A DNA stretch of 64,000 nt, from NCBI GenBank assembly GCA_905178155.1, contig CAJINV010000005.1:5287038-5351037 (forward strand), in the 5' to 3' direction. Of this stretch, positions 7,382 to 61,703 are shown in pieces. Below the pieces are notes generated by a model. That model saw nothing but the letters and a program-made list of their open reading frames with translations, made no database searches and was not told the DNA's origin. Origin of the DNA: Amoebophrya sp. A120. Its lineage: Eukaryota > Protista > Dinoflagellata. Made by a program: the position numbers and the translations under genes. The stretch's first letter is position 1. Every line of letters starts with the position of its first letter.

Positions 7382-9934
7382 ATGTCGGCGTCCTCGTCAT
7401 CTCGAAGTTTCTTGCCAGCCGCGTCGAAACTGCTGCAGGCGACGCAATCTTCTTGCTACAACAACCCTAGAATTTTTCTCGCTACGGCGACGCGTACGAG
7501 TGCCAGGACAACAAGTGTGAAGAACTGCAGGAGGCAAGATCAACAGGGCCGCGGTTCTTGTGGGAGCAGCACATCCAGCAGCTCCTCAAGTGCCTCTACT
7601 TCTACTCTCGTAAAGGTAAAAAACTGCCCAGCGGGTGAACTACACGTAGGTCAACATCAAACATCAGGTCGCACACAACTACTTCGACCGCAGGGGTGGC
7701 CGCGGCCCACCGATTCTGATCCGCAGTCGACGCCACTTTTTGATGTTTTTCCCGGAACAGGTAGGTCTAGGTGGCCAGAAGAACCGGTTGCAATGGCTTA
7801 CGGACATCAAAATCTCTTCCGACCCGCGACCACGCACCAGAGGACCGGCTCTCTCGTAGTTTTCAGCCACGGTCGCGGGGACAGCACCAGGAGCAGTTCA
7901 CTTGTTCATCATCCCAGATTTTTCCATCATCGTCCTGCTCCCATCAGTGCTGGGAGAAGCAGAGCACAACAACTTTCACTGTCACAGATGCGAGCTTTTT
8001 CATCATCTTCTTCCCCTGCGAAGGTGAAAGTGATGTGGATTTACGAAAAGGACGGCCAGAAGATAGGGCCCTGTGAGGTGAAACCGCACCAGACCATGTT
8101 GGACTGCGCACACGACCACGACATCGAAATAGAAGGTATACGATAGGAACTGAAAGGGTCATGCTAAAAAAGCTTGTCATGCGAAACGAGGACATGATAC
8201 TTATCGATATCCACACAAAAAAAAATGCTGAGTGTTCTGATGCGCACCATGATCTTCATGCGTGGTCTCACATCAATATCATACATCATTCATCATTTGA
8301 TCAGGTGCCTGTGGAGGCAATGCTGCCTGTTCGACGTGTCACGTGTACCTAAGCGAAACGGATTACAACAAATTTCCGGAGCCTGATATGATCCGCTCAC
8401 ACGCGACAATCTCAAGCGTTACAATAGAATAGTGAAAATCTGTGATGCAAGAGGTGCGTGATATCTAGCCAACTCTCATAGAATTGCGCATGACAAGTTC
8501 GTCCGGAGGCCGCAACCGCACTACAACCTGGCGAGATCTGTGTTGCAGCAAGTGGAATGCTTTCCGAGTCTGTCATGCTCGTCACGCAGTACAAAGTCCA
8601 GACTCTATTGTAACAGTTGAGATTGTAACGTCTGAGCAGGTCACACCTGACGAAGACGAGCTGGACATGCTGGACCTGGCCGCGTATGAATTGCAAAAGC
8701 ATCGCACTCGTATATGTAATCATGCATTACAAATCCTGTTCTTGAGGCAAATTAGCATTACAGATTGGGGAGGGGCAAATTAGCATTACAGATTTCCCGG
8801 CGGGATATAAGTTGGGGAGCACTGATAGATAAAAAGGCAGCATGCACAGGGGAGAGTGGCCCCTGTTGCAATGCTGACCTATAAAGAAAGACAAAGATCA
8901 CGCAGATCCGTTTTTTACAAGCAAACGACCCACGCATTGCGGGGCGGGATCCGTATCGTGAAAGATCCAGTAGCTTTTCTAGTCTATGTTGTGCCCCTTA
9001 CTAGTTTGCCGTCGAGTAGAAGTAGAGCTGATTTTATTGCAATTGCCGCCTTTGCGATATTGTTTAGCGGACCCCGCCAAAATACCCTCATGCGTTTCCC
9101 GAGTAAATCAGTTGCAACTAGAAGCATCCCCGTCCTGCTTCGGCACACCCCATCTACCTAGTCGCTCCTGGGTAGATGTGGGGATTTTTTGTCTGGGCTT
9201 CTTTCTGCTTAATTAATCTGACAGGGGCTGCGTCTTTTTTTTCTGCCTTGCCAGCAGAGTATGTATGAAAGGGGGGGATTGACGGAAGTGGCGCGAGACC
9301 TTGGTGCTGGAGCAGAGGACAAGAGTGGAAATGGTACAAACAAAAAACAAGCACTAATATACCCGCGCCATCTGCTTAACTGTGTGAATTATTGTGTCGG
9401 CCCGGTACTGTTTAGTCGCAGGTCGGTGTCCGTGAGATCAGAATTCACATGTTAAGTAACGCACACCGGCTCCTAGCTTAAAAAAAGTGATGAATTTATA
9501 TGCGAATGGGGCCCAATCAAAAAAAAAAAAAATTAGCATTACAGATTTTATTTCTCATGCTGAGGAAATTTGTAATGCATTTACTACGAGTGCGATACTT
9601 TTACTTTTGCACTGGATACCGCGGGCCTGAAAGAGGGCACCAGCCGCCTGTGCTGCCAACTCCGCGCCAGGCACATACAAGACCAAAGCAGCGGTGGAAG
9701 CGGCGGGGCTCCTGCTGCACCGGAGACGTATCCAGTGCAAAAGTATCGTACTCGTAGTGATTGCAATTATGCATTACAAATCTCCATGCCAAGGTGAAAC
9801 AGCACCACAAATTCCATTTGTCATGCTGAAGTAATTTGTAATGCAATTACTACTTCTAGTACGATGCTTTTGCAATGCATAACGCGCTAGTTCTAACGAT
9901 ACCGAAGGAGACAAACAACTTTTTCGACATGTAG
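7382..9934 (+). CDS. Mitochondrial 2Fe-2S ferredoxin (adrenodoxin type) with long Ser-rich N-terminal presequence
   Basis: Spliced protein: DIEIEGACGGNAACSTCHVYLSETDYNKFPEPDEDELDMLDLAAGLKEGTSRLCCQL...LVLTIPKETNNFFDM*, which has the C-x5-C-x2-C...C motif. GT-AG intron at 8136-8304; introners at 8387-8645, 8685-9618 and 9729-9881. Confidence 0.9.
8796..9532 (+). mobile_element. Poly(A)-tailed SINE/retroposon-like insert nested in a family A introner
   Basis: About 720 bp with no convincing ORF, ending in an A14 run; flanked by AAATTAGCATTACAGATTT repeats. Confidence 0.75.
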
Positions 9935-12900
9935 GACAACTTCTGCAAGTAGAACGGGGTCTACTTTTCGTGTCACCTCTATGAGGACCAAAAGAACATC
10001 GAGTAACTCTAAGGCGCCGGGTCGTGTCCTCGCTCCGACGGCGATGATTTTCAGTTCTTCATCCCAAAACAGATGAAACTCAGCCGCTTTTTTGAAGTAG
10101 AATATCCGCATCACCCGTGAAGAGAAACTTTTTGAAGCAAATTCAAAGCGAGAATCAATAATAAACTCAAGCTTGAACTACAAGGGTAAACAAGCATCAT
10201 CTTCGTATGGAAATGAGCTGCGCCTACAAGAGCTGCCACTGGTTCATCTTCTTGGAGGGGGGGCTGATTGTGTGGCGAGTCCCTTGGTTGTAAGCGGCAT
10301 CGTTGTTCCTCTGGCATGATCCACCTATTTCCCGACAAAAAGATCTGCATCTTGTTCTTCCACGTTGTGCTGCAATGGAAGCTCTATTTCGGATCCCCAA
10401 TTATTATTTGTTCGTTGTTGTTCCCTATCGATTGCAGTGGCAGTGCATCATTTGCATGGATGATCACCGACGAGACTAGAGGCTACAAACGCCAGCTCCT
10501 GCTTCTAAAAGAAGAGCAGTTTTTGCTTTCTCGCGGACCGTGTACTATTCTATTTATTCACCACGCGAAGTAGATCGTCGATCTCGATTCATTTCGAAAA
10601 AGGGCGAGAAGGATCTCGATAGAACAGTTTCGTGTCGGCCTGCCCTGGGTGATCGAATTGTATTTGTAGTCTGACTGCAGATCACGCACATCCTTTTGCT
10701 AGTCGTATGTGCTAAGAACAGGCTGTAGGAGCAACTGCAACTGCACCTACGCGAGCATTAACATCGATCGTGAGACGAGTTCTACCATCTGGGTGTGGTC
10801 TTTGGCATAGAGCAAAAGAAAGATAAAACCGTACATGTAATTCTTGCGTAAAACTAGAACTTTATCGACCACTACGTACAACATAAAGCTAAAGAGCATA
10901 CACCGGGCATCAACACGGTTTGGGTCTCGCACCGGCGAAGTGCTATCACTGGAATACGATGAAATTTTTACGTAGACAATTTTCTAGTACTGTACCTAGG
11001 GACGTTGCAAACTTCCATCAGCCCTGTTTTACTAGAAAGTGCTTTAATGATCGGGCGAGAAAGGATCAGTCAAACGACACTGCAGCAGGAGATCTTCGTG
11101 CGTATATTAGCCTCCCCTCCGCGACAAGAACTGTGTAGCGGGTAAAAATACAACTTCTTGGCCGCGTTTTGCAACGTCATCTATCTCAATGTTTCTCTCA
11201 GTCTTCTCTCTAGTACAGAATCTATCGCACTAACTAGGAAGACGAAGAAGACGTTCGTGGTTTTTTACTATTTATCGTACTTATACTTAACTTTTTAGCC
11301 GATAGAGTCGAAGAAGTTTACCTTTATTTTCCAATGATTTCGTAGTATTTTTGTCGATAAATTAGTCCTATTTGTTCGTTCTGTCTCTAGCCAAAGAATC
11401 TGCTAGCAATAAAGGTCGTGATCAACGCCCACCCTTTCCCGCCACGGTCCCGGAAATTTTACCAATAGAAAGGAAGTTATTGAATATTGAAATAAGAAAC
11501 AATTATAATACTAGACGAGCGAAAGTTCAATAATCTATTTTTAGAGGTGGAAACGAAGTAGATGTAGCATCCTTTGTTCTTCTTCTTGTCCGATCAGCCA
11601 CTCAAGTCGAATTGTGAAAATTTGGCTTCGGTCGTGTTGGTGAGTTTTCCCTCCGTCACTAGTATCTTTGACCACTTATGTAGAATCCGCAAAGCCAAAG
11701 CGATTTAATCTCATCTAGGTCTTTCACACCACGTTTTGCTTCCACCGGGCTTCCGTTTTAATACTCCGCTTTTTGTCACTGTATAAACATACGCACGCGC
11801 AAGCACCCGCAGATATTTACTGTACAACTTCTCGTGATCTATTGGCCATGTTAGTTTTTTTTTCCTGAATAAAGCTAAGAGTAAGAAGTTGAAGTTTAAG
11901 TTTCTGACGCTTTTTCAACGGCCTATTGAAGAGCTGCAGCAAACTGCTTCACAAAAACCGGCCGCCTGGTACTGTTGGCTACTTTCGTCGGTCGTCCTCT
12001 AGTTGTACCACAGTTTTAAGATAATATAGCTTTCCCGACTTATTTCACCAGGTAGTCTTACACTTACTCTTACTCAGAAATATTCCATCGCAGCAACAAA
12101 AACTAAAACTTCTCTTCCAACTTCCATTCGGGGACTCAACTTGCTTTCGTCTCGTCGGATGGTTTCGAAATAACTTCCGGCGACAAGAAGCAACGAACTG
12201 AGCCGCCTGAATGCCGCATGATCGATAAATCCTTAAAATGAGTCTACTTCTCCACATTGATTTCTAGTAGCCCTCTTTCGAAACCAGGTTGTCTGGAGGT
12301 CGCAATGCCAGTGCTAGGATGTTGCTCGTAGATGTATAGGATTAGTAATCCTGCGTCAGCGTCGGGATCGGGTCGTGCAACTAGAATTTCGTCGTACTAT
12401 CGGAGATCGAACAGGAGACTCTTGCTGCAGTACTTCGATTCGTCATGTACTGCAGTACTGCTCGTAGAGCAGGAGCAATCTATCGTGTCGCAAAAAATTG
12501 AAGAACCTCGTGGTCCCAGCAAATAACATGAATACTAAAACACACCCTTGATGACGGCGAGGCATCAAATATTTTTAAGGCGTTTTTTTTTTGAAGAGTA
12601 AGAAAAGATAAACGTGCATAAAAATATTCGGCAAGGTGGGAGCTACTGAAGCAACAAGAAGGGACAACACTTGTTTCTAGTTGCCAGCCGGGGTTTCCTT
12701 CTTGAGCATTCATCGATCAAGAATTGGTCACTCTGCAGCGGCGCGGCGGTGATCATTTTTGTCGCCAAGTGCAAGAGAAGTGCTGTCCGAGGAATAACAG
12801 AAAAAACCACGAGCGCGCGCTGCTCATCATCTTCTGCGGACGACAAAGATCATTATACGAAGAGCAACGTCTACGTCGGCTTACCGGCAGGCATCAATAC

Positions 12901-14260
12901 CGCGAAGGCCGCGAAGATTTTTAGTTGCGAAGAAGGAAGAACAGCTGGTGCGTGTGACGCACGAAACAGGACAAAAGCATCAACGAAACGGAAGTACCTT
13001 GGCGGCGTAGACAAATCCATAGAATACAGCAGGCGAGGCTTCTAAGAGTATCACAGCAGCGTCAACATCTACTTCATCTCTGGAGGTCAAAGATCCCGTC
13101 GCGCAGGAGAAATTCTTTCTGGTTTTTCCAAGCGATAAAATTACGCCGCATTGTTTTGCGGCCGGACGACTCGTCTCCACCTAGGCAAAAGCAGCAATAG
13201 GACGCTTTTAATAGAAGCTGAAAGTACAAGGTAGACTTCGAGGACGCGGGCGAGCAGCTGCAGCAAGCAGTACACGAGTATTAAAGAAACCACGGGTCGA
13301 CGTCGGCTCCTGATTAAGTAGAACGAGAGAGACAGAGAATAAACCAGAAAAATGGTGACGGGTAGTACTACAGCACCAGGCGGATCTTGTTCCACTGCTA
13401 GCTCTAGCAGCTCATCTTCCGCGCGGAGAACGTCGGGAAGTAACAGTACGGACGCTCTTAGAAGTACTACAACCACACCGGCGAAGGAAGACAGGCGAGT
13501 AAGAACATTCCGAGGGAGCAGGGGCAGCACAGCAAGCGGCAGGAATATGTTGACAACTTCTTCTTGTTCGTCAATTACATCAGCGAGCAGAACAAGGTCA
13601 TCTTTCGTCAGAATATGGTGGAATCATGCAAATAGTGATGATCATCTTGGTCTGAAAAGTAAAAGATGACGTTCAAATCGTCCAGATGCGAATGACAAGT
13701 CGACTTTTCGTTTTGTAAACAAGCTATGTATAGAAACTTCTTTACTCGGCAGGATCATGCACCATCACAGAGCTTAATTATGCAGTGGTCCTGCACCTGC
13801 TGTACTTGTTAGATCTCGAAGAGAGTCGCGACCACTACACCAGGGCGGGACCTTCTCCTGCGTCGATGAGAGGCGCATTTAAGTACTTATCCAGCCAAGG
13901 AGTCTTGTTCGCAAAAATCTACTTCCAGACGACCAAGTGATAGGAAACATCATATTTGCAATGCATACAAGGCCGCCTTCGGCTGCTCCACAGCAGCACT
14001 CCTCCTCTCGCCACAGCATTCAGTGCTCGTCAATGCAGACAGCGCGGCAGGGACCACTCCAGGCGGGGCAGCTGCAGCAGGCCTGCAACAGCCCGGGTCG
14101 TATCCTGTGCAAAAGTATCGTACTCGTGTAAATGCATTACAAACTTCCTCAGCGTGAGAAATAAAATTTGTAATGCAGATTTGCCTTGGAGACAAGATTT
14201 GTAATGCTAAACTTGCATTTGTACGAGTGCGATACTTTTGCACAGGATAGCTCGCAGTTT

Positions 14261-17200
14261 ATGGCGAAACAGGGACAACAAGGCGACCCGATCGACGGTG
14301 CGAACCCCAACAGGGAAATTCCGATCACCGATGCAAACGCTGCTTTGCTCGGAGGGGACAACATCAAAGGAGGTGCCGCACCCGCAGGCGGCTCTGCGCC
14401 CAGTCCACCTGTCGACAACGGGCAGCAATCTACTTCCGTCATGACCAATACAACCGAGGGACCACTGACCTTTGATCAAGTTGTATCGCAGGAAAAAAAT
14501 GTCTTTTCTATGCTGATGACGGTTTTATTTTTGCACAATGTTAATGTCTATGTGCTGCATGAGATGATGCGCACTCATCTGCTCTCTACATCGTTCTTTC
14601 ATCTACTTCTGCCTCTGCTGCAAAAATACAAGTCGCCGACCTTCCTCTCAAAAGTTAAACATTTTTTTTTCTGCGATAAGCCGCGTTAAAGCAGCAGTAC
14701 GACCGGGAAATGAAGGCGGATGTGGACAAGCACCACATTGAGGTCATCGAGCGAGATCTGCCTAGCTACAAGATCAACAACGGTGTGAACGAGGGGAAAA
14801 CTGGATTTCCCTTCGAAAAGGACCACGAATTCCCGGGCGGTAAGATGAAAAATTTATGACCAACATCGACAACTTTGGATTGATTGATGTGTTTGTGGCA
14901 CCAGGACCAGACGAGGACGAGATGGCCATGGTGTTTAGGTGTTCCGGCATGACAAAGATCATTAGCGAATGTCTTTTGGCATGACAAAGACTGTCAATCT
15001 CTACAACTGGCCAGGTTTCTACGTGGACACGGTAATCCGCACCGAGAAGGACCGGTGGACGATTTACAAGGGGCACTATCAAATGCAAATATGTCTGGGT
15101 CCTCTGGAAACTTGTGATGCTGGTGGTGGAGAGAGACGAGGACACTTCGATTGACTGCAAAGCATGACAAGTTTTGAAGGAGCTGCAGTGCTGTCTAAAT
15201 TCCATGACAAAGTGAGCTCCTGCATGACAGAAAAGTGGGGCTACTTTTGGGGATACACGTGCATGACAGACTTGAGAGTCACGCTCGCGAAGCATGACAA
15301 ACCTTGCATCTTCGTTCCAGACCTCCCAGACATATTTGCAGGTGATAGGCACGTTTTCGGAACTACGGACTACTGGGACTTATGTGTGGTTTACGTGCAG
15401 AGGGTGGATCCGAATTTTGTCGGCTCCATGCCCAAAGTGGTATACTTACAATGAACTGGTGCGGTTCATAATCTAATTTGCTTTACTTGGATGTTGTAAA
15501 GCGCTACTGGATGATGGATGTTGAAGATGTTCATGATAGCATGTTGTGTACTAGTCCGTCGATGCTAAAGTGCAGTGGTAAGGAGCAAGGCTGCAACAAC
15601 TTGGGCGGTCCCCATTGATTTGTTCAGGATTGCTATCCAAGAAAAAAAGTGTGTAAGTGTAACCTTTTTGCAGTAACAGCATTACAGATTTGTTTTGCAT
15701 GACAGAGAAAACCTGTCATGCGTAGCTAGTACGCGAAAACACGTATGAAAATAGCCTCTGATGCACATCCAGCATGAAAAATGTAACTGTATTGCAACGT
15801 CTGCAACACAATAAAGCTGCACTTACGCTGCAGTTTTTTTCTTGCATAATTGCGGCTTTCTCCGACCCGTGGTCAGCCGGGAACTGGTGCAAAATCCGTC
15901 CGATGTTTACCCCAACGAAGCCCCCTACTGCGTCCTGCTCTCCGAGAAGGAAGACACGTGGTACCAGGGCAAGCAGTACCGGTTATCAAGAAGGAAAATC
16001 CTCCCTCGTCCGCCCCATATCAAAACGGAAATCTGTGATGCAGATTTGTGGCCACAAATCAGCTTTGTCATGCTAGAAAGGAGAGAAAAGATGTGCAGAA
16101 AGTGCTTCCTCGCCCACCCCCCGGGGAGGGGATCCTTGACCTGTGGCGCTGGGAGCGGGTGTCCACTACGTGATGATGATGATGATGATGACTGCAGTGC
16201 TGTGCGGCGTGAGAAGGCCTCGCTCCATGTTGAGCATGACAGGAGGCAGCTGGAAGTGGGAAACAGCGTGACAAATTGTCTGCAAACGAGGCCACGACTG
16301 CCGCTTTTGGCCTTCTAGCAATACAACTCGATTTGTGTACTCATGTACCGCATGACAAATTTCGTTTTCGATATGGGGAGGGGGGATTTTTCCTTTTGAT
16401 GCCGGTATTCCGCATGGCAGTTTTTCCAACGCGTTCCGAAGTTCCAGCCGTCCTTTCGCCCGCGGGAAACTTTCGAATCCGGACAATTGCCGGGCGTGTA
16501 TAATTGTTTCTGATAGAAGTGCTGATGTACTTTCGACGTCTTACTTTTACGAACACATTCTTGCTACCGAACAAGTTGTGATGTCCCATCATGTTGATAC
16601 GACCATGTTGTGGATGTGGTTTCAGTTTCTGGGAAGTAGGAATAGCTTTGATGCCATGCAAGATTTTTTCAGCATGATTTGATGCACGACGTACAAAAAA
16701 TACAACGACTGGTCGATGTTGATAATGTTAAAAACACGACAGGAAATACCGTTTTGAGAAGTTCCTCGGGCGGGGCACGTACGGCGAGGCCTACCTCGGT
16801 ATTCGGCTAACGGACAATCGCCCCGTGGTGATCAAGGTTCTGTCGGCAAACCCCAAAACCTCCGCGCACACCGATATCCACCGGAGAAAAAGTTTCCTGG
16901 TTGTGCAACTACTCTTTTTGCAACAAGCAGAGCATGGTCATCTCCAAATTCTGGTTGCAGGATTCGGATTGCATTTTCACCACAGATGCTGCGATCATGC
17001 CATCCTAGTGCTCGTCCGTACCCTGTGCAGTCGCATGTAGCTGCTGCACCAGGTTTGTGTTTGTCACAGAGACTGAGAGAGTAGAGATGTGTATATTAAT
17101 GCACTTTTATTTGTTTTCTAAATCGAAGTACGCCAGCTTGAGACTTTTGTAGAGCATAGCCGACAAGGGCCCGCAGGTGGTGTTCGACAAGCCAAAACAA

Positions 17201-20200
17201 CTGCTTCCCGGTTCAACGAAATCCGAGCGGGACGCTTGCAACTTGTCGCAGGAGCTGTTTGCGCAGATCTCAGACAAGTCCAAGTCGCGGTTTGTCGCCT
17301 GCTTGGAGGGGGATGGGTGGATATGCATTGCAAAAGTATCGTACTCGTGTGAATGCATTACAAATTTCCTCAGCATGAAAAATAAATTTGTAGTGCGGAT
17401 TGACCTCAAGAAAAAGATTTGTAATGCATAAACGCAATTAGTACGAGTGCGATACTTTTGCACAGGATAGTGGATCACGCACAGCTCGGGCGTGGAGTTG
17501 CTGTACGCCATTTGGGAGTACGGGGGCAGTTCGATCGAGCAGGACCCGCCTATGGCGCTCTCAAACGTTACTTTCTCAACTGTTACATGAATCTGTAATG
17601 CAAGAATGGCAAAAGCAAAAGGGGGAAGATTGTAAAATTTGCATTACAAATCCCGCGCAGATTTAGGCGCTGTTTAGCCCCTCGCAAATTTGTCATGCGA
17701 AGCAGCTTGATCTTGTGGATGATGATGGTAGTTTTGCATGGCAAATTCATGCAACAGACGGGAATGCAACGCTTGAGAACTCCATACCGCCCAGAACCCT
17801 CTCGGACGCCCTGATCATCATGAAATCGGTGCTGGAAGCAATTCAAATTATCGTCCGGAAAGGTATAAAAATGTGAAAGAAGTATGAGATGAATCATGAC
17901 CATGAGCTTATTTTTAATAGCCGCGCATTTGTCGTGTAATTTTTCGTAAATATTATTTCAAAATTGTTTACTGTCATGCCCGGACTGTAAGGCGTTTCCT
18001 TTGCCTTTCACATCACAGGCGACATCGTCCATCGCGACATTAAGATCCCAAACATCGTCTGGGATGCCAACAAGATCGTGCGCTTGATTGACTACTCGCT
18101 TTCTCGCCGCATGCGGTCCTCCATGCAGCACGGCAACCGGTGCTACCACACCCAGCGCTACAACCGCACAAAAATGCTGCTGGAAACTTTGTATCCCATT
18201 GGTGCAAAAATAGAAAATATCGCACTCGTTGGAGATCATGATAGATATTCACTCTTGCTGTCTGACATGTTGACCGATATACTTGCTACTTTGTATACCT
18301 AAATTTTTGCAAATTCACCTCCATCATTTTTATTTGCGTGTTAGTTGTGGAAGAAGCAAGTACAAATTGCCATGCAATTTCTACGTACGATCGAGTGCGA
18401 TAATTTCTGTAAAGCTGCATACCTGAAACGAAAAATTCCGCGGGGAAGGCCGGGCCTGGGAGCTGGGATGGCACAGGGCAATTTCCGAATGGCCGGACTT
18501 TTTCCGGGTACTACACTTGACAAATTGCTTGTTAAGAACCGGTCGTGTCCACCTCTGCATTGATGATAGTACATAGATAGAGCGGCTCTCATTGGTGAAT
18601 GACACGAATGCGCATTCCTGATTGTCTTCGTCGTGCTCTTGCATGTATAAACTGATTTGTTCATGTTTCAATTCTCACAGCTCCGCGACGCGATTTGCGA
18701 ACAGGAAAAATTCGGATCCGCGCTCGAGAAGCAGGTGGAAAAGGCAATATGGACGGGGAAGAAGAGTATGTCCAAGATCACAAAGTTGTTCCTAACCTGA
18801 TTACACTTTGAATAGGGGGCGTTTACACTTGATCAGTTTGTGACGCTGGCGGAACAACAGTCATGTCATTACATACGAGATCCAGAAATAGTAAAGGTAG
18901 AGATGAAACAGAAACAACACTCTTCTTACACCATGGTACATGAGGACTGCTCTACTTTCTTGTTGCATACCGCACCGGGGATTTTCACTGCCGGGTGCGC
19001 GTTCGGCAGCCTACTTTGTACTCCAAAGAGTCTCCGCATCTGGACCCACAGACCGAGGCCTCGATCACCAAGAAAAGATATGAAAACCGAAAAACAATGT
19101 GTACAACGTACTAGTACTGCTGTTGTGAACACTTTAGAAATAATTTTACCACCGCTGCCGTCGGTCTTGACGTGACAACTTGAAAATTGAAAGTTGTGTT
19201 TTGCATGAACAAGAAGGCGGTGACATAAAGCGCAGGTAGGATGCATGGAGTTGTTATACGTAGTTTTTCTTCGCATAGCAGCCCAGTGGTCTTCCGATGG
19301 GGCCTGTGGTGCGAGGAATACGGGTACAGTCATCAACTTTTCATGCATTCTAGTGTGGGTACCAGCCGGTCTACTGGAATGATATGTAAGAATGCCAATT
19401 TCGATTTGTGATGCTGAGTGTGGAGTTGTATGTTAGACAAAAACCTCTGTAGTTGCACAGATCAACCACAAATAAAACTATACAGGTATGTGGTGGAGCA
19501 TTTCGGGGAGTATTTTGGGATCCATGAGTTTGACGAGTGGGCAGACGATGACTTTGCCCTGCCGCAGTTGCAGAACGGGAGGCTGGTAACCGTGGTCACC
19601 GAGGATCAGCTGGGTTCCGATGCGCTGAAAAAGGATGTATCAAATGCAAAAATGTCTGGGTCTGGAAACTTTAACTTGTGTTGCTAAAATGTGGACGATA
19701 GAAACACTTCCGAATGCTACCTAGCATGACAAATTTCCAGAACGCTTTCTCATAGGCAATCCGCATGAAAAGCTTCTTGTTTGGGTTTGCATGTACAAAA
19801 TAGGCTGCGACTTTTGTAGGTTATGCAATACAGATTTCCCAGGTCGTATGGAAAGCTAGCATTACAAGTTCCAGCCTTCCAGACCCAGAGATGTTTGCAA
19901 TGCATAGGATGCCAAGAAAAACGAAATCACCTGCGCGAACGGCTTGGACCACTGGTTCGCCGACTGGCCGCACCAAGAAATCCTGAACTCCCTGCAAGCG
20001 AAGGGCAAGGACGAGCGCGACGTCGGGGCTTACCTGGCGACCCTGCCGGAAGTCCAGGAGGAGGCCCGAAACAAACACACCCACTGCATCAGCTGGACCG
20101 CAGAGGCGGCGCCGAATGAAGTGAAGTCCTATATGGTGGAATTCGACGAGCAGGACCCCCGGTCCTTCGATGTGCACTCCCTCGGTGTGGTCATGTCTCA

Positions 20201-46708: not shown

Positions 46709-46726
46709 ATACTGGAGTGGAATGGT

Positions 46727-51081: not shown

Positions 51082-54000
51082 ATGTACCTTGCTTCGGGGG
51101 AAAACGTAGACGCCAACTCGGATACTTCCGATTCGTCCGATGTGGAGGACAGCGAGGCAATCGCGGCGAGCCGGCGACTCCAGTCCGCGCCCCCGATGCA
51201 GTTCATGTACGAGAGAAGGTCGGAGTTTGAGTCCCCCCAAAACTTCCTATCAAATGAAAATATGTCTGGGTCTGGGAGATTCTGAAACTTACTTCTCATG
51301 CACGTTTCGCATGGGCCACGATGTCTGTGATGCATGCCGTAGCTTCACAGCTTTTTCGAGGGGTTCTTGATGCCTATTGCGCATGACAAATGCCCTAACC
51401 GCGTAGCAAAAATTGCATTCCCTTTGCTATTCATGCAATACAATTTTTTTTGGAATCCAAATGCAGCATCACAAGTTGCATTCTACTTCCAGGCCCAGAC
51501 ATTTTTGCATTTGATACTTTCGAACACCCGACGAAACGAAAAACAGCAGTTCTGGCGGGACGGCGTCTTCCCCTGGAACGAGCAAGATATGAATTGCAAA
51601 AGTATCGTATTCGTATTGCAATCATGCATTACAAATCCTTTTGTTAGGGTAAATCTGCATTACAAATGTTATTTCTCATGCTGAGGAAATTTGTAATGCA
51701 TTTATACGAGTGCGATACTTTTGCAGACGATACAAGAAGAAGAGCAACAATAATTCGCCGTCGAAAAAGAACAATCTGAGTAAAACGCCGCAAAGCGGCG
51801 GACCGACCGTAGGAGGCAATGGAAGTCGAGGTATAGCAGGTGTTTGGATTTCCAACCAGGAGTGAAGTGTTATGTTACGTCTATAAAAATCTTGATGGTG
51901 TATGTTCTTGTTCTAATATCACGATGCGACAAGTGCGAATGGTCTGGTGCAACCTACTGCAGGAAATGGAAATACAACATCGCATATAATTGAGCCGTCC
52001 TTTACTTCAAACTGCATATACAGGTGGAAATAACGGCCGGAAGCTGTCTACCCAGCACGAATCAGACGATGAAGATGAATCCGAACAGGAAGAGCTTGTC
52101 CGTCACACTGCACTATCAAATGCAAAAGTGTCTCGGTCTGGAAGAATGTAACTTGTGATGCTGCGTTTGGATGTCTAACAAATTTGTGTTGCGTGAGCAG
52201 CAAAAGGATTCTAATTTTTGCTACGCGGAGGGCATTCGTCATGCGGAATAGGCATCAAGTTTAAGAATCCCTCAAAAAACCTGTGATGCTATGGCATGCA
52301 TCACAGACATCACGGCTCATGCAAACCGTGCACGACAAGCACAAATCTCAGAATCTTCCAGACCCAGACACTTTTGCATTTCATATGCACCAATGACCTA
52401 TGCAAACCCCCAAAGGACAACCCCAAAGTCGTTTTCAGGTCATCTAGAAGGTGGCATCAATGCGGCGAGACAAAAAGCAAAATCGGAATATCGGCACCCA
52501 GGAGCTCCTGCAGGTGCCACCGCGGCCCAGGGAGGAGGTTCTTCTACACCGTCTTCGAAGAAAAACAAACAAAACGCGCAGAGTACGTCGTACCAGTTGA
52601 GCTCCCCGCCAAGACAAGACCGTGGGATCGTGTCTATGCCGTCCGAAGATCATGCTGGGGTGTATTCTCTCGACGGTCATGGAACAGCCGCTATCAAGAG
52701 AAAAAGTGTTAACGTTAACGGTTTTCACAGATAGCAGTCATGCGTCGCAAATGTAGCTCAATATGCATGCTATGCATGACAAATTTAGGCACGTTTTGTG
52801 ATGCATTTCTGCATAACGAATTTCGATAACGTTAACACTTTTTCCTGTGATAGCCGCGACCATGTCGATGCCACCCGGGATGATGATGAAGATGTCGAGA
52901 GCAGGTGGAGTTGCACAAGACAAGTCAACACCGAACAAGTCAACAGCTATAACTCCTACGTCCGGGAAAAAGAAGGTGAATCAAAAGCAAAGCACTAGCC
53001 CGGTCGTGACCAAAGCAGGCGCTGGAAGTGCGACAACTTCAAGTCCCTCTAAGATGGGCAACAAGAAGAACAACAAACAGCTGCAAGGAACTTATCCTGT
53101 GCAAAAGTATCGTACTCGGATAAATGCATTACAAATTTTCTCAGCATGAGAAATAAAATTTGTAATGCTGATTTGCCTTGACAAAGAAATTTGTAATGCA
53201 AGACCTGCATTTATACGAGTACGATACTTTTGCACAGCATAGAACTACACTGACGTCGATGCAGCCCACCAGCTACAACAGTGCAACAGTAACGTACTAG
53301 TATAAATTGCATTACAAATTGGCTCAGCATTACAAATTCAATTTGTAATGCTGATTTACCTTGAAAAAGAGTTTTGTCATGCATAAATGCAATTAGTACG
53401 AGTGCGATACTTTTGCACAGGATACCAGCTACAACAGTGCATCAACCGGGGCGGGCGAGAGGAAGGAATCGGACGAGAGCGTCGGTTATCCTGTGCAAAA
53501 GTATCGTACTCGTACTAATCGCATTCATGCATTACAAATGTCTTTCTGAACTCAAATCCGCATTACAAATTTTATTTCTCATGCTGAGGCAATTTGTCAT
53601 GCGATTTATACTAGTACGATGCTTTTGCATTTCATATCGGTTCGTTTCTCCGCCAAGAAAGCCGCCAGGATTCGGAGATCATCATTCCCGGGCGGAAAAT
53701 GTATTCCGAATTTTTCCCCGGCAGGGTAAAACCTGTGACGGAAGGGCACCCAAAACACCAGCAGCAGCTGACGAGGCAGCAGCGGGCGGAGCGACGACCA
53801 AGTAGGAAAGTCCCGGGGGAACCGGGAAAATTGAGTCCGGGAGGGAAGATAAAGATTAAACCAGGGGCGCAACATATCCCACGAAAAAACTGGTTCACCG
53901 TCGTGATGATCTTGCAAGATCTGCATCACAAGTTTCTTACACATAACACAGAAAATTTGCCATGCGCGCTTCCCAAGTGAAAACACGCGGAAAAATCCAG

Positions 54001-57000
54001 TGTCTTGCAGGTGTAGCAAGACAAATCGTTCTGTGCTCCATTCTCTGCATCGCAAGTTCACACGTGAAACAGTTTTTTCGTGCGATACAACAAGTCTCCT
54101 CTACAACGTCCAGCGACGTATCAAATGTAAAAATGTCTGGGTCTGGAAGAATGCAACTTGTGATGCTGAATTTGGATTCCAAAAAAATCTGTATTGCATA
54201 AGCAGCAAAGGGAGTGTAATTTTTGCTACGCGGAGAGGGCATTTGTCATGCGGAATAGGCATCGCGAGGCCCTCAAAAAATCTGCGATGCTAGGGCATGC
54301 ATCACAGACATCAGGAGTCATGCAAAACGTGCATGACAAACCTGGCAATCTTCCAGACCCAGACATTTTTACATTTGATACGACGACACGGCGAACCAAC
54401 GAGCCACAGTGGCGACGATGGGAGGTGGTCACGACCCGTATCCTGTGCAAAAGTATCGTACTCGTAGCAATCGCAGTCATGCATTGCAAATCTCCATCCC
54501 AAGGTAAAACAGCATGACAAATTCCATTTGTCATGCCGAGCTAATTTGTATTGCAATCACTACTAGTACGATACTTTTGCAGTTCATGACCCGAACAGGA
54601 GAACAACGATGGGCGGCGCGGTGAACAAATTCCGACAGCAACTAGAGGAGCAGCTGGGTAAAGTGAACAATGACGGGGAAAGCACAACCAAGTCGAAAAA
54701 ATCGACCGACAGCTTGTCCAGGACGGTTTCCGGTGCGAAGAAAAAATCGTCCGCTTCCCGGTCCACGCGGAACAACAGCCGTATGAAAGCCTCAGAATGG
54801 AAATCCTCAAAGTGGAAATGATTTATGATGCATGAAATGCGACGCAAAAAAGACTGTATTGCAGAGCACGCAATGGAGGCCGACTATTGTCCTGCTAGGG
54901 GTGAAGAATTGGAGTGCTGCTTTGCACGACAGAAGGGCACCCCCTTGCCTTAACCTGCATGACAAACATGCTGTAAGTGCCCGGAAAATTTGTCATGCGC
55001 CGACTACAAATGCCGCTTCAACTGGAGTCGTTTATTTGCATTACAAAGTATTTCCACTATTGAGGATTTCCAACCTGAGGCTGTCATAAGCCGGTTTTCC
55101 GATAACCCGCCACCCCCACCGGCTTTCCAGCCGCCGGTAGACATGGATCCGCCACTGTTCCGGATGAACTCGATAAACCCGACGGGAGTGGTGATTGCAC
55201 CGGGGGAATTGGATTATCCAGGTATAGTTGGAAACTTTTTAACGATGACAATGTAAAATTAAATACTTTTCGGGATGATCAAATTATGTCTTACCGGAAC
55301 AAGATTTTTTCCCCTCCTCGTTCGTGTTTGTGCTGTCCTCTGCTTCTGCATGTACACAAACCTTCCTCATTACACAAAAACGCATGCAAATACTTATTTA
55401 TCACCCTCTTTACGACAACAGCCACCTCGATTCCGACGGTCCTAGTGCCCATCGACATCGCGAACCAGCCAAAGGTGCTGATGCCCATCGATAATAACGG
55501 GACCTACACCGAAGCGGTCCCCGTGCTGATGTCCTCTGATTTCGCCACCCCCACGACCCTATGCAGTGCAAAAGTATCGTATTCGTACAAATGCAAGTCC
55601 TGCATTACAAATTTTTTTCTTAAGGTAAATCAGCATTACAGATTTTATTTCTCATGCTGGGGAAATTTGTAATGCAATTTGTACTACTACGATACTTTTG
55701 CAGTTCATAGACCCCCATCAATGCAGCGGCGTCCCCGTTCATCCCCCACACGACTATCAAATGCAAAAATGTCTGGGTCTGGGAGATTCCGAGATTTGTC
55801 ATGCAGTTGTTCCAAGCTCCCCCACGTCTGAAGTGCAGGGCCTAGCATCAGAGGTTCTGCAGCTCCTTGGTGATGTGTATTCTGCATGAGAAATGCCCGC
55901 TCAGCATCGCCAGAAGTGGGCACCTTTCGCACGTTATGCATCACAGGTCTTTGTGGGATCCAAAACACGCATCACAAGTTCGAATCCTTCGAGACCCAGA
56001 CATATTTGCACTTGATAACGACTGGCACCCCGCAATTGCTGCCGTTCGCCACGCCAACCAGTAGCGGTCCGCACGCGATCAACACTGGTGGAGGGACAAG
56101 TACTACTACTCCCGCGTTTTCGCTCGTGTCAGGAGGTGGAGGAATGAATGCCGCAGCAGCGGAGTTCACGCCGCAGAGTGGTGCGAACAATAATGCGATC
56201 CTGGGCAACGTGAATGCGAGTATGTTGAGCGGGGGTAACATGGACCTGCAAATGGACGACACATCAACCGCGAACATTACCGACGGCTCGGGCTGGGTTG
56301 CAAACAATACTAGTTTCAACTCTCAGAGTAAAACTGGCTCGGCGTACAACAACAATAAAGGTGGAAAAATGATGAACAGAAGCAGTGGCGGAAAGGGGAA
56401 TTACAACAATCAGAACGCCATGGGAGACGGCGGCCAACCAGGCAGCTGGATCAACAATAACAGCAACGACAACTACGGGAATAACTATTGGGGCGGTAAT
56501 GCAGCTAATCAGGACCAGCAGAGGGGCAGCGGAAACAACCAATACACGGCCTACAAGGGCAGTGGCAATTACGAGTACGACCCCAATGTTGACCCAGGGA
56601 GTTATAGTGCGTCTTACATGGAAACAAACAACCCGCAAGGTGGTCCGTTGAACACCAAGGGGACATCAACGACAAACGGGTACAACAATAGCTACGCTGC
56701 TGGTGGTATCCCCCAGAAAAAGACCGACAGGTCATATTTGTAATGCAAAAATAAATAGATAAAAAAATCTGTATTGCATGCCCTAAACAGGATGTTATGG
56801 CCTCGCCCATGACAGATTTTCCTGTGTATTTATTTTTGCATTACAAATATGACCTGTCGGTCTTTTTCTGTGGGATAGGTGGTGGTGCAACCTCTTCCTC
56901 ACAGCAGAACGCTGGAGCAGGTGGTGGCAAGAAGGGCTACAACTATTCCGGGCAGAAGCAGCCCCGGAACAAATACGGGCATTTGGTCGTGCAAAACCAA

Positions 57001-60000
57001 GACCAGCGGCAAAACCAAAACCTCCAGCGGGATACAACGTCGAGTGCAGACCTCAATGTATCCCACGAAAAAACTGTTTCACTGTGATGATTTTGCAAGA
57101 ATCGCATCACAAGTTGTTTGTGACACATGAGGACACAGAAAATGTGTCAGGCGCGTTTTTCCCATAGGGAAAAACACGGTTGGAACTCCAATGCTCTATG
57201 CAGGTGTAGCAAGACAAATCGCTCTGCGCTCCATTTTCTGCATCACAAGTTCACAGTGAAAGAGTTTTTTCTTGCGATACAATGCCGCGCAGATGTATTC
57301 GGTTTTTTCCCCGGGCACCGGCGGTTTATCCTACGTAAAAACGTCCCCACACCATAGTCAAGATGGGAAATCTGCAACATAAATCTCCAAGTTTTGGAAG
57401 TTCTGCATGACAAGTTTCCATCTGCAGTGTAGTGCTGGTTAGCCAGGAAAGCCGCATGAGAAAGCCATTTACTCATTCTGTTTACAGCATTACAAATTCC
57501 AAAACACGACTGGAAACGCCTCTCAAGGAGATGCGCGCTACAAATGTTCCTGTCATTGCACATTTGCATGACAACTCTGGGGTCCGCCTGCGCCTTCGGT
57601 GTCCGCCTGACCTACCCCCCCTGCGTGTCAAGCCATCTGCGGCCTGGGGCAGAGGGGGGGGGGCAAAGTGTGCTGCAATTCCTTTAGCATGACAACTCTG
57701 GGGTGGGGTCGTTTTTACACAGGATACGGCTTTCACCGGAGTTACTCGGCTTTCAACAAAAACCAGAAGGACTACGTCCAGGGAGCGGATGGGCAATACT
57801 ATCCGCAAAACAACTACATGGGAGGTGGTGGGGATGATGCCGGATCTTCATGGGGAGCCGGGTACCAGCATCCCCAGGGGAATTACAACGCGAACTGGTA
57901 TGGAGGGACCACGAACAGCAGCTACAACCAATACGGGAATCCAAATCAGCCGGGGCTGCACAACAAGGGTTACGGGAAACACCAGCAACAAGGTAAAAAC
58001 TACCCTGCGAGCAACCAGCTCGCAGTACCACCGTCGGCGGCGACCAAGCCACGCGCTTCCTCCTCGAGTTCAGCGACGACAGCGCAGCTGACGAACAAGC
58101 AGCTCTCCCACGGGACCGCGGACACACCCACAAGGCGGAGAAAACACCACGCACCGAAGCTGTCAAAAGCGAAAAAGCTGGAGCGGCTGGCTACGCATTG
58201 CAAAGCAAGTATCGTACTAGTAGTAATCGCATTACAAATTTGCCCGGCATGAGAAATGAAATCTGCCATGCTGTTTTGCCCTGGGACGTAGATTTGTAAT
58301 GCATGCTTGCGATAATTACTACCTACGAGTGCGATACTTTTGCACAGGATACTAGCGCACGTGGCGTGGCACGCAGAGGCGACGAGTATGGGGTGGCTAG
58401 ATGAGGACACCATGATATGAATTGCAAATGTGTCTGGGTCTCCTGGAAGCTGGTAACTTGTCATGGTAAATCTGAAGCATACAAAAATCTGTGTTGCATG
58501 ACTGCCAAAAGCAGCTCTTCACTTTCGACCAAGGTGGGAGGGAGTTTGTTCTCATGTAGGATAGGCATGATAGGGATCTCGTCACAGAATGTCTGTCATG
58601 CTAGGTCCCGCATCCCAGACCTCATGGGTCATGGAAAACCTGCATGACAAGTTTACGCTCTTCCAGACGACCCAGACATAATTTTTGCATTTGATACATG
58701 AAATTCGTGAAGCACGACGCGTTTCACGGCAGGTTATCGGCGCTAAGCGAAAATATGAACTGCAAAAGTATCGTACTCGTATAAATGCAAGTCTTGCATC
58801 ACAAATCTTGTTCCCAAGGCAAATCAGCATTACAAATTTCATTTCTCATGCTGAGGAAACTTGTGATGCATTTATACGAGTACGATACTTTTGCACAGCA
58901 TAGAAAATCACGTGCGGCAACATGGGGTATATATGCAAGAAAAAAACTGTGTAAGTGTAACTCTGTAATGCAGAACATGCAACAGAGCTACACCTGTCAT
59001 GCCAGACAGCCATGAAGTCCTCTGCTCAAGTGTGTTTTCCCTTACAAGCCACGCATGACAGGTTTTCTCTGCCATGTAGAGCAAATTTGTGATGCTGTTT
59101 CTCAAAGAAAGTTACACTTACACACTTTTTTTCCTGGATAGTATAGGATTTTGCGACTACAACCTAACAAGGATTGTCATTCGGTTTTTTCGTTCTGTTC
59201 CTCGCCAAGGGATGAAGCGGAACGAAATACTTAAATAATACAAAGTGTAGAAGTCGTGTTTTATTTGAGCTCCTCAGTACTAGAACTTGTTCGTGATGAA
59301 GAAAACGTCTGCAATTTGAATTTTAGTCACAGTGACTGCATTAAGACAAAAGCAAGACTACTAGTACAGCACAAATTATGGATGTGTCAGGATCGAAATC
59401 GACAAAATCGAAAAACTTGTGATGCGTAAAATGTAGAGCACTGAAGGCCTGTCTTGGGGCGCAGGCATATGAGGCCGATTGTAAGCCTGTTTAGGGGTAT
59501 GCAATGTGCTGCCAGAGTAGCATGGCCGGAGCAGTCTTCTTTGTCCAAACAGCATGACAGACTGCATTTGGGTGCTCCCGAAATTTGTCATGCGCCACTT
59601 GAAGACTGAGGCTCCAACTGACATCGATTTTGTGCATCACAAATTTTTCGATTTTGTCAATTTCGATTCTGACGCTCCCATACAAATTCAAAAAATTGAA
59701 ATTGTATCAGGTCCACCGCTACTGCGTATGCTGTGCAAAAGTATCGTACTCGTATAAATGCAGGTCTTGCATTACAAATTTCTTTGTCAAGGCAAATCCG
59801 CATTACAAATTTTATTTCTCATGCTGAAAAAATTTGTAATGCATTTATACGAGTACGATACTTTTGCAGTTCATACTGCGTCTCATTTCACCAAGTGCAC
59901 CACAAAGCTTTGAGTAATGCGGACGGAATATGGATTGCAAAAATGTCTGGGTCTGGAAGATGTCATGCTGTTTTTGCATGACGCAGAAGGTCTGGAATGG

Positions 60001-61703
60001 AAGCTCTAGCATCACAGATTTCGAGAAGGTTCTGCAATGCCTAATCCGCATGACAAATCCCCCACTTTGGTGACAAGAAGTGGGCATCTTTTGCTGCCTA
60101 TGCATGACAGATTTGTCTGTGTTGTGAACTGCGCATCACAAGTTCACATCCTTCCAGACCCAGACATTTTTACATTTGATACGGAATGGGCTTCGTGTTT
60201 TCCTCCTTGCTGCCCTGTACGAAGAATATCCAGAAAATCAAGTCGATTTTTCTGAACAAGAAGGGCCAGGTATAGTAAAAATAAATCGATCTGCTGAGCA
60301 GCGGTCGTGTATCCTCTGATTTTGCCAAACGATATGAACCGTAAATGCTGTGAGTCGTGCATGAGAAACACATTTTGAAGTGCATGGAAAAATGCATGAC
60401 AAATCATAATCAAATACTATGAACACCAGATCATGATCCGGCGAGAGAAGGAGCTCAACAAATGCATCATCCCGCTGGAAACGGACGACCCGAACGCACA
60501 CACCACCGCAGAAGGCCACGAAAAATCGAAGCACAGCGCAGCGATCGTCGACCACGAAACCAAATCCTCCTCCTCTGCGGACGGAGAAGATCATAGGAAA
60601 AACGCGCCCAGCACCTCGAGCGACACCGGAAGAGCCATCCCCTGGAAGGAAAACACGAGGCTGCACATGCAGATTGACCTGGACAACTACAAAGTGAGCT
60701 TTTGGCTCGAGGAAAAATACGAAGAAGATACGGACGAATACCACGCGACGGATGTGCCGGTGCCGGAGGATGCGGTATTATTTGATGCAATACAAATGTA
60801 TTTGATGCAATACATTGTATTGCATCAAATACAAACAGACAAATGGGATAACCATGTATTTGATGCAATACAAATTTGTTCGACGGACAAGTTGAAATTT
60901 ATACATACACATCAGATCACCGTCGATTACCGTTCCTACTTCGACCTAGAACAAGACGACCTGTCCCAGGGTTTTCTCACCATTGTGCTCAAATCCGCGG
61001 TATGCATTGCAAAAGCCTCGTACTAGTCTAAATTGCATCACAAATTTTGGCAAGAAGGTTAGTGGAATTTGTAATGCTGTTTTCCCTTATGAAAAACATT
61101 TGTCATGCATATTTGCAATTAGTACGAGTGCGATACTTTTGCAGTTCATACGCGGGCGCTGGTGCGAGATTTGTGTCGTACGACAACCTCACCCCCAAGC
61201 CGGAGTTGCCCGCCGACCCCCAGCACGACATCGAGGAGCTGACGACCCCGACGGTGTCCTCGAACTTGGGCAACAAAACGCCATCCGGGGCAGCGGGTGC
61301 AGAAAACAAGAAGAAGAAAACAAGACGGAACAAGAAGAAAAACGCGGCTGCGAATTCCGCCGGAAACTCACCAACGAACGGGGCGGTGAACAAGGATGAT
61401 GAGGACGAAAACACGAAACCGACGGATCACGCAACGTTTCTCGGCGAGGTCAGCGGGGAGGTGATTGAACAGTTGGAGGACAGATTATTGACGCAGTCGA
61501 AATCAACAAGGAAGAAGAAAACGACTTCTGCTGGTGGTGGTGGTCCAAAAACCGCTGGTGCTCCTGCAGCTGCCGGCTCAACCACGTCGTCCGTGTCAGT
61601 AAGCAAGTCTTCGCCAAGCAAAAAGCCCAGTGAGGCAGCTACCTTGTTGGACCAATCTCCCGGGAGTGGCAGCACTGCGGATTCTAGGACGGCGGACGCT
61701 TGA
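51082..61703 (+). CDS. Large low-complexity (N/G/Q/S/P-rich) hypothetical protein with a globular C-terminal domain; about 24 introners
   Basis: Exon fragments join in frame where checked. C-terminal domain FHGRLSALSENHVRQHGVHRYCVSF..ADGMGFVFSSLLPCTKNIQKIKSIFLNKKGQI resembles a motif I recall from dinoflagellate hypothetical proteins. Could be more than one gene. Confidence 0.6.
56707..56877. mobile_element. Single-copy introner with a ~50-bp TIR
   Basis: TATCCCCCAGAAAAAGACCGACAGGTCATATTTGTAATGCAAAAATAAATA and its near-exact complement; flanked by GGTGG/GGTGG. Confidence 0.85.
57584..57686. mobile_element. 103-bp GC-rich insert nested in family B introner 57327-57726
   Basis: Flanked by an 18-bp duplication GCATGACAACTCTGGGGT; absent from other family B copies. 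Confidence 0.8.

Follow-up and report, generated by a model that had tools for sequence, protein, structure and literature searches.

A probable common splicing register for the introners of Amoebophrya sp. A120

The introners of the dinoflagellate Amoebophrya sp. A120 are very probably removed from the message in one common register, in which four bases of the left copy of the flanking 5-bp repeat and one base of the right copy are retained (4+1; k is the count of left-repeat bases retained in the message). The analysis covers a window of 64,000 nucleotides (nt) of contig CAJINV010000005.1 (assembly GCA_905178155.1, positions 5,287,038 to 5,351,037 of the forward strand; coordinates count from its first base), in which 100 paired elements with TAT or TAC at the left end, ATA at the right end and 5-bp flanking repeats were collected. 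One cut is exact and 16 other sites give bounds. The readable junctions are likely to represent the register N-TAT...(C/G)ATA-NNNN, cut by a major spliceosome with relaxed requirements.

The elements themselves are known, and the text of the paper by Farhat et al. (2021) describes Amoebophrya introners as having no evident signature for splicing and a border that is not known (PMC7789003). The removal of tens of thousands of non-GT-AG introns in Amoebophrya has been an open problem since 2021, in part because the repeats conceal where the cuts fall, and reviews of 2024, in the passages retrieved, still describe the motifs as variable. The splicing rule was apparently unstated before and is now partly verified: a literature search of the texts retrieved found no statement of a 4+1 register, part of which may be shown in Fig. 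3 and Figs. S19-S23 of Farhat et al., outside those texts. One register would give a defined substrate, N-UAU...SAUA-NNNN, and would thereby predict every junction and correct the annotation.

Junctions in RNA Contigs

The 5-base flanking repeat is perfect in 71/100 introners and mismatched in 29/100. The RNA contigs came from three runs of a single sample, guessed to be RNA, and are assemblies aligned to positions 24300-44200; 15 of 45 joints were listed, to which the statements on joints refer (a raw-read run, X8, with 9 reads placed, was counted neither way). All 14 element joints among these 15 (14/14) remove the element plus 5 bases, the remaining joint being that of the GT-AG intron at 37796. 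In the calmodulin-like gene, the joint at 38018 (element 38018-38219) has an ambiguity of 0 and occurs in 3/3 contig runs at depths of 178, 149 and 54; k is exactly 4, the intron ends are AT..TC and the protein reads DDEVEEM, as had been proposed for four left and one right base in an earlier reading of this DNA made from the sequence alone (hereafter the sequence-only reading). The repeats CGAAA/TTTCG stand there as that reading wrote them; they are, however, not a degenerate direct repeat but a reverse complement that extends the stem. The TTTC after ATA is the reverse complement of the left flank, the stem (38013-38224) spans both splice sites, and the inner repeat of the element has decayed.

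Six other RNA sites give one-sided bounds (Table 1). The joint at 24749 has an ambiguity of 4; the bound at 30004 (k at most 4) comes from a piece boundary in run X1; at 34891 pieces end at 34887 and begin at 35002 in 3 runs; and the bound at 35352 holds by the leftmost placement convention and for the near side of the joint only. Retention of right-copy positions 1-4 or of left-copy position 5, which would have refuted the sequence-only reading, is seen at none of the 7 informative sites; under a uniform random register, all 7 would allow k=4 with a chance of 0.027. Removal is independent of orientation, relatives in opposite orientations being both spliced (37072 vs 37579, 26506 vs 26975).

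Further sites lie outside the stretch covered by RNA (6255, 14101, 20244, 51248, 57327, 58192) or inside it yet unlisted or uncovered (31424, 32082, 35664, 40334, 41497, 43596). The unlisted introns of the cactin gene are accounted for exactly by nucleotide sums of the contigs (355, 431 and 560 nt). At 32082, in the same gene, the repeats GTTTT/GCTTT are as first reported; KPRFFN is presumably the cactin consensus there, and the RNA is compatible with the kept base coming from either copy.

Junctions in Database Proteins

Three query exons of the window match the A120 proteins P0001 (a kinase), P0003 and P0004 with 100% identity, a fourth, of a 2Fe-2S ferredoxin gene, matches P0005, and P0002 is the kinase orthologue from strain A25. 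The database models of the A120 proteins derive from transcript alignments plus selection of the longest open reading frame (ORF) (PMC7789003, section 25) and are weaker evidence than reads. The motif scan itself favours TAT/ATA elements, and the set obtained from four database proteins is free of that bias: every one of the 51 non-GT-AG junctions in these proteins is an element of this kind (49 TAT, 2 TAC), and four decayed introners were found through the proteins only. Of the junction rows, 48167 and 48589 are paralogue sites matching P0003, and 15634 and 59727 escaped scoring, a second intron lying close enough to fall in their peptide window.

Among the scored junction peptides k=4 is allowed in 51/51, k=3 in 48 and k=5 in 49; among the 10 informative junctions, 3 exclude k of 3 or less and 2 exclude k=5. 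At 18192 fewer than four left bases would give TGA. At 43921 the element plus 5 bases is removed although AGs lie 5 and 8 nt past ATA, and the use of those AGs with the GT donor would break the frame. As regards the mismatched sites at which the sequence-only reading expected the junction to be legible, RNA gives k of at most 4 at 24749 and 35352 and k=4 at 38018, and the proteins give at least 3 at each of 9729, 14484 and 43921.

When RNA and protein sites are combined, 17/17 agree with splicing one base before TAT and four after ATA, as that reading had placed it, and k=4 is the sole common register (combined crude chance 9e-6). With four left bases and one right base kept, as this register has it, the message would regain the original coding sequence whatever the target or orientation. 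The frames of cactin, the calmodulin-like gene and the kinase are open only after introner removal. According to PMC7789003, in the part retrieved, the commonest direct repeats of A120 have four nucleotides upstream.

Introner Anatomy and Target Duplication

Left ends are TAT in 97/100 introners and TAC in 3/100, which agrees with the earlier description of TAT as the rule and TAC as rare. About 95/100 end in (C/G)-A-T-A, with ATG, ACA and AGA as exceptions, and the A-run at positions 11-13 of the TAT-starting terminal inverted repeat is present, as in A120 introners. In a paralogue pair with 95% identity 11 elements differ, and each empty site carries a single repeat copy, which identifies the 5-bp repeat as a target duplication; 8/11 empty sites are identical to the left copy. 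The left copy at 40334 equals the empty site of the paralogue at 46963, as first noted.

The paralogous segments, 40185-42975 and 46819-49022, carry 7 and 4 introners, respectively, with none in common. The second is bounded by introner halves that have a 34-base stretch in common (about 46727 and 49126), an arrangement that suggests segment duplication through recombination between introners.

Coding exons hold 98 of the introners and a GT-AG intron the 2 others, nested in it; no paired introner was found between genes in the 17.9 kb of intergenic DNA of the window. Unpaired element ends occur outside gene spans at 13137, 22945, 49023 and 63486. The genic location of all paired elements suggests exon-directed insertion or fast loss elsewhere. 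The introners form 9 multi-copy clusters, the largest with 31 members, in which the two orientations are about equal (217 vs 205 pairs).

A metagenome scan returned 130 loci (L001-L130), of which the 80 listed all come from one assembly, with 254 further elements and no overlap with the exons of the window. This other assembly carries the same introner families, and the 5-base repeats are perfect in 183/254. For 67 of these elements orientation could not be assigned and 8 had more than 2 mismatches, so that 179 were used; the orientation classifier was correct on 74/76 window cases. A codon-score test of the exonic repeat copy at these loci was null (20/37).

Terminal Dinucleotides and Donor Mimicry

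In the 4+1 register the first intron base of the 100 introners is A in 35, G in 24, C in 22 and T in 19, and 50 different pairs of end dinucleotides occur. The GT or GC start with AG end of U2-type introns is not a feature of these elements: GT-AG is found in 1/100 and in 6/279 when window introners and oriented metagenome elements are pooled. In the pooled set G stands at +1 in 80/279, the background value (28.7%), and AG at the predicted 3' end in 31/279 (11%), where the other positions of the repeat give 18, 13 and 13 (p=0.0014); this is also above the exon background (p=0.009); gain and loss of AG in the right repeat are even (6 to 5). The first and the last two intron bases are free, which bears out the proposal of a relaxed +1 and a free 3' dinucleotide. 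A YAG such as TTTTGCACAG lies near the 3' end in 37/100 introners; it is skipped in the RNA contigs at 26975 and 37579, in both of which TTTTGCACAG lies 8 nt before the predicted 3' site.

Of the six possible registers, 4+1 alone puts T, A and Y at +2, +3 and +4, each in 100/100 introners, and these positions are common to introners and host donors. The window has 14 candidate GT-AG introns, with a GTA donor in 14/14 and GTAY in 13/14, against 12.6% of all GT dinucleotides in the window (p=3e-11). The left ends had been said to mimic this GTAY donor; the likeness is real at +2 to +4, whereas +1, +5 and exon position -1 differ, and a spliceosome is likely to read it as a donor. In Table S4 of PMC7789003 the nine commonest non-canonical end pairs of A120 all have T at +2, and the nine commonest of A25, the repeats of which begin TTA, are all TT-NN. 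The retrieved text of the same paper reports snRNP27 as undetected in both strains, and a portion of another study links SNRNP27K loss in yeasts to donors that have U at +4 and pair with unmethylated U6 (PMC10581693), a link that might by analogy be carried over to Amoebophrya.

The 3' End

Folding was carried out for 98/100 introners (two of more than 450 nt were left out) and predicts a terminal stem in 87/98. TAT:ATA itself is paired in 70 introners and is predicted to be open at the RNA-confirmed elements 24749, 35352 and 37579. Complementarity at terminal positions 4-7 amounts to only 38-60%, and the C/G present at position 4 of both ends does not covary (it pairs in 57/100, and in 50 when shuffled). 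The elements at 13614, 18192 and 40334 have no predicted stem and have kept TAT and (C/G)ATA, which thus outlast the stem in decayed elements, and this favours counting from sequence over structure. Of the two ways in which the 3' end had been proposed to be set instead of by AG, distance from (C/G)ATA therefore fits better, mostly from database-protein junctions, and structure less.

A Possible Mechanism

In the mechanism proposed here, a small DNA element with TAT...ATA ends would enter an exon, duplicating 5 bases, and the message would retain four bases of the left copy and one of the right. The left TAT would fall on +2/+3/+4, where host GT-AG introns have T, A and T/C, and we infer that N-UAU is read as a donor by the major spliceosome, with the U at +4 read by U6 and with U1 absent or diverged. 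The 3' cut would be counted four bases from the (C/G)ATA signal, a process that the terminal stem may help and probably does not define, and a residual preference for AG at the acceptor would be weak at most. The major spliceosome would have relaxed its need for the +1 G and the terminal AG. A broader statement, that the A120 spliceosome needs neither terminal dinucleotide and accepts an N+UAY donor and an acceptor four bases past (C/G)AUA beside GT-AG, the +2U/+3A of A25 being independent, appears to us evenly balanced.

Several observations weigh against this account. A single junction (38018) is exact in RNA, from one sample, in contigs and not reads, with 15/45 joints listed; the database proteins are indirect, a stop forces the result at 18192, and the A25 orthologue carries Gly at 18748, the residue expected from a 2+3 register. 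Position +5 is C/G in 99/100 introners and A/T in 13/14 canonical introns, and exon position -1 is G in 11/14 canonical introns and 32/100 introners. The AG excess at the acceptor disappears against position-wise base frequencies (expected 27.4), and the placement of junctions inside repeats in Table S4 may reflect aligner habits. With stems predicted in 87/98 and the ends of 38018 pairing (0.96), structure may contribute; the register at the stemless elements 13614 and 18192 is read from database proteins, and the constancy of TAT/ATA in young copies is explicable by transposase recognition alone. No branch-point consensus was found near the 3' ends of introners or canonical introns: CTRAY occurs in the last 45 nt of 2/100 introners and 2/14 canonical introns.

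Alternative Explanations

The main rival, which we consider unlikely, is that the same register is cut without the spliceosome, by an endonuclease-ligase or another machine measuring 1 and 4 nt from the stem, as has been proposed for nonconventional introns of euglenids. The geometry resembles the Euglena code, given in the part of PMC12501133 retrieved as 5'-N3CDG...CH'GN5-6 followed by R, both having a paired motif flanked by a short spacer on the 5' side and a longer one on the 3' side; the stem is predicted in most elements, the right flank of 38018 is now the reverse complement of the left, and such a machine needs no G, AG or branch consensus, U1 being reported as not found. It offers no reason, however, for the 1+4 split that puts TAT on host +2 to +4 or for the TT-NN ends of A25, and the register appears to persist without a predicted stem at 13614 and 18192 (database proteins only). 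The unpaired TAT:ATA predicted at the three RNA-confirmed elements named above and the weak AG excess at the predicted acceptor also argue against it.

It is improbable that the register varies by element, with the calmodulin 4+1 a special case and the rest a product of aligner or ORF-selection bias. The one exact RNA site does have an unusual right end, the other six RNA sites are one-sided, and the legend to Fig. 3 of Farhat et al. describes the position of splice sites with respect to the hairpin as variable (PMC7789003); against this, the 17/17 informative sites intersect at 4 alone, and each of the nine most frequent A120 classes in Table S4 has T at +2.

Removal by the minor (U12-type) spliceosome, as in Physarum, is very improbable. 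The U12 consensus comprises an RTATCCTT donor and a CCTTRAY branch site, and varied end dinucleotides are tolerated. TAT at +2 to +4 fits, N-TATCC occurs in 26/100 introners, and Physarum U12 introns from terminal inverted repeat elements include AT-AG, AT-AA and GT-AT, according to the portion retrieved of a preprint (bioRxiv 2020.10.12.336362); the full RTATCCTT donor, however, is found in 0/100, 0/100 have the U12 branch motif within 40 nt of the 3' end, +1 is C or T in 41/100, and U11, U12, U4atac and U6atac are reported absent. That the joints arose when reverse transcriptase switched template at direct repeats, or that they come from DNA without the elements, is hardly credible. Such switches classically occur where direct repeats surround a hairpin, and the runs are guessed to be RNA, but no bases are shared across the 38018 joint, the contigs with these joints also pass over GT-AG introns and stop close to the ends of genes, and the frames of cactin, calmodulin and kinase need removal to be open.

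Comparison With Known Systems

The introners can be set beside several known systems, each described from the parts of the sources retrieved. In the A120/A25 introners already published, repeats start with TAT + 7 nt + AAA, direct repeats measure 3-5 nt and more than 60% of introns are non-canonical, as here; the pattern is latent in Table S4 and, unlike here, is not stated as a rule in the text (PMC7789003). Class 12 of the introner-like elements (ILE) of Polarella glacialis shares the 5-nt duplication and a 4+1 geometry in an NNAGG frame, the last target base being +1 and the 3' site following base 4 of the right copy; it needs, however, a +1 G and AG supplied by the target and one orientation, whereas here both orientations splice (10.1101/2020.10.14.339549). 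The text of that preprint retrieved contains 0 mentions of Amoebophrya. Fritillaria borealis, the major spliceosome of which is modified, has transposon-derived non-GT/AG introns too, but with preferred AG/AC and AG/AT ends and a 3' site provided by a YAY target (PMC13326754), whereas in Amoebophrya the target is free and +2 to +4 and -8 to -5 alone are fixed.

Nonconventional introns of Euglena have paired motifs at fixed spacers, free ends and flanking repeats, and differ in spacers of 3 and 5-6 around CAG/CTG, a purine in the next exon and the formation of circles (PMC12501133, PMC12621601). The Amoebophrya spacers are 1 and 4 around TAT/ATA, and the motif matches the host donor; a purine rule for the next exon is not evident (right position 5 is A/G in 57/97), and in place of the euglenid signature N3-CDG...CH'G-N5-6 followed by R the introners have TAT at +2 and ATA at -7 to -5 as their fixed motifs. 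The U12 introns of Physarum polycephalum also use inverted ends, RTAT...ATAT, as splice signals with varied dinucleotides, but have a full U12 donor, a TTTGA branch motif and a TA target, none of which is found here (10.1101/2020.10.12.336362).

If the proposed account is true, a palindromic-ended transposon can land almost anywhere in an exon, in either orientation, and vanish from the message, which would explain how these transposons can invade essential genes without harm to the coding sequence. The 4+1 register would direct attention to U6, U5, Prp8 and the step-II factors. The first G and last AG of an intron normally pair in the second step of the spliceosome, and a natural system that drops both and keeps +2 to +4 would bear on splice-site docking. 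The cactin gene (24411-33212), which itself encodes a step-II spliceosome factor, holds 24 introners.

Genes and Canonical Introns of the Window

Every reconstructed gene lies on the + strand, and Pfam finds kinase, 2Fe-2S ferredoxin, cactin and EF-hand domains among them. Features are collected in Table 1. The ten donors listed by the sequence-only reading all begin GTAT or GTAC (10/10), and 9/10 are supported as introns, by RNA (37796, 28861) or by proteins (8136, 15440, 17863, 51831, 55222, 58927, 60270); the exception, 60775-60915, is 141 nt long, in frame, stop-free and kept within P0004, and is therefore unsupported as an intron. Four donors beyond these ten are at 14840, 16498, 18508 and 19324.

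Table 1. Introners and GT-AG introns of the window, all on the + strand (repeats are given as left/right copy).
Positions	Feature	Repeats or donor	Register or remark	Basis
1484..61154	Whole set of 100 paired TAT/TAC...ATA introners	5-bp flanking repeats		Scans plus curation
6254..6569	Introner	CGAAG/CGAAC	Predicted to keep right-hand C	Sequence only
8136..8304	GT-AG intron	GTATAC		P0005
9728..9885	Introner, 2Fe-2S ferredoxin gene	AGACG/ACGCG	k at least 3	P0005
13613..13971	Decayed introner	CAGAA/CAAGG	k 3 or 4; stem not predicted	P0001; fold
14483..14682	Introner	AGTTG/AGCCG	k at least 3	P0001
14840..15014	GT-AG intron	GTAAGA	Sole non-GTAY donor	P0001
15440..15627	GT-AG intron	GTATAC		P0001
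16498..16742	GT-AG intron	GTATAA		P0001
16874..17162	Introner	ACCGA/GCCGA	k at least 1	P0001
17863..18018	GT-AG intron	GTATAA		P0001
18191..18425	Decayed introner	CTTTG/CCTGA	k at least 4; no predicted stem	P0001
18508..18680	GT-AG intron	GTACTA		P0001
18747..18973	Decayed introner	GGCAA/CCGCA	k at least 3	P0001, P0002
19078..19281	Decayed introner	AAAGA/GCAGC	2-4 left bases kept	P0001
19324..19485	GT-AG intron	GTACAG		P0001
20589..20880	Introner	GGAGC/GGACC	k at least 4	P0001; A25 orthologue also Glu
24748..24924	Introner, cactin	CTGTT/CTGTA	Position 5 from right copy	RNA joint 24743->24921
25478..25772	Introner, cactin	CTGGA/GTGGA	Position 1 from left copy; k at least 1	RNA joint 25474->25770
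26145..26466	Introner, cactin	GCAGA/GCGGA	Position 3 from left copy; k at least 3	RNA joint 26143->26466
26974..27130	Introner		Unused TTTTGCACAG decoy acceptor	RNA joint removes element+5
28861..29114	GT-AG intron, cactin	GTACTT		RNA contig nt sum 431 = 431
30003..30286	Introner, cactin	AGATT/AGATG	Position 5 from right copy	RNA piece start 30283
32081..32347	Introner, cactin	GTTTT/GCTTT	Removed; kept base from either copy	8-element nt sum 560 = 560
34890..35003	Introner	AATTT/ATTTT	Position 2 from left copy; k at least 2	RNA piece boundaries
35351..35610	Introner	GGAAA/GGAAG	Position 5 from right copy	RNA piece end 35346, 3 runs
37071..37227	Introner, calmodulin-like gene			RNA joint
37272..37442	TAC-starting introner		Spliced	RNA joint
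37578..37731	Introner		Same TTTTGCACAG decoy; opposite orientation to relative 37072	RNA joint
37796..37926	GT-AG intron, calmodulin-like gene	GTACTG		RNA joint 37795->37927
38017..38223	Introner, calmodulin-like gene	CGAAA/TTTCG	A-TAT...ATA-TTTC	RNA joint 38016->38224
40333..40608	Introner, right end decayed	ACAGC/ACACC		Paralogue comparison
43920..44051	Introner	AAAGG/AGCAG	GT start; k at least 3	P0003; open frame
44917..45079	Introner	CTCCC/CTCGC	k at least 4	P0003
48166..48422	Sole GT-AG introner of 100 in 4+1 register	GAAGG/GAAGG		Sequence
51831..52023	GT-AG intron	GTATAG		P0004
55222..55421	GT-AG intron	GTATAG		P0004
58927..59710	GT-AG intron		Two nested introners	P0004
60270..60429	GT-AG intron	GTATAG		P0004
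60775..60915	Candidate GT-AG intron, unsupported	GTATTA		Retained in P0004

The assignment of 58927 as an introner only was rejected, P0004 showing a GT-AG intron. Introner 58932-59140 sits 5 bases into the donor of this intron, duplicating GTATA, and a second introner (59377-59682) is also nested in it; 4+1 removal of the first would, from the bases present, restore GTATAG, the donor of 51831, 55222 and 60270, and ordered, twintron-like splicing is possible. Canonical introns have 3' ends rich in A and C, often ACAG, and little polypyrimidine tract; CTRAY is missing in 12/14. An Rfam search of the window returned 0 families, with no small nuclear RNA in it.

Additional Observations

Unrelated introner families carry the motif GCATNAC(AA) and its reverse complement at about 6 per kb, about 30-fold above intergenic DNA, with the first copies 34-47 nt inside the introner ends; in canonical introns the density is 1-2 per kb. 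It is not supported as a branch site: the two strands carry it equally (149 vs 146), no copy lies closer than 43 nt to the 3' end, and it is present in only 3/14 canonical introns. It is a candidate site for a transposase or host factor, and some canonical introns, given their copies, may be old elements.

Element 53274-53424 has a 17-base flanking duplication, the left copy of which doubles as its TAC-starting end, so that its true borders are ambiguous, and the 934-base element 8685-9618 carries a long insert. A second repeat type lies inside two unrelated introners (about 16110-16180 and 29720-29795), and contig cover is deep near 29731. The open frame reaches about 440 codons further upstream than the first residue of P0003, across ten introners (39138-42264), and the model may be truncated. 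A diverged intergenic tandem duplication of about 1 kb, seen by eye, occupies about 2800-3850 and 3890-4790.

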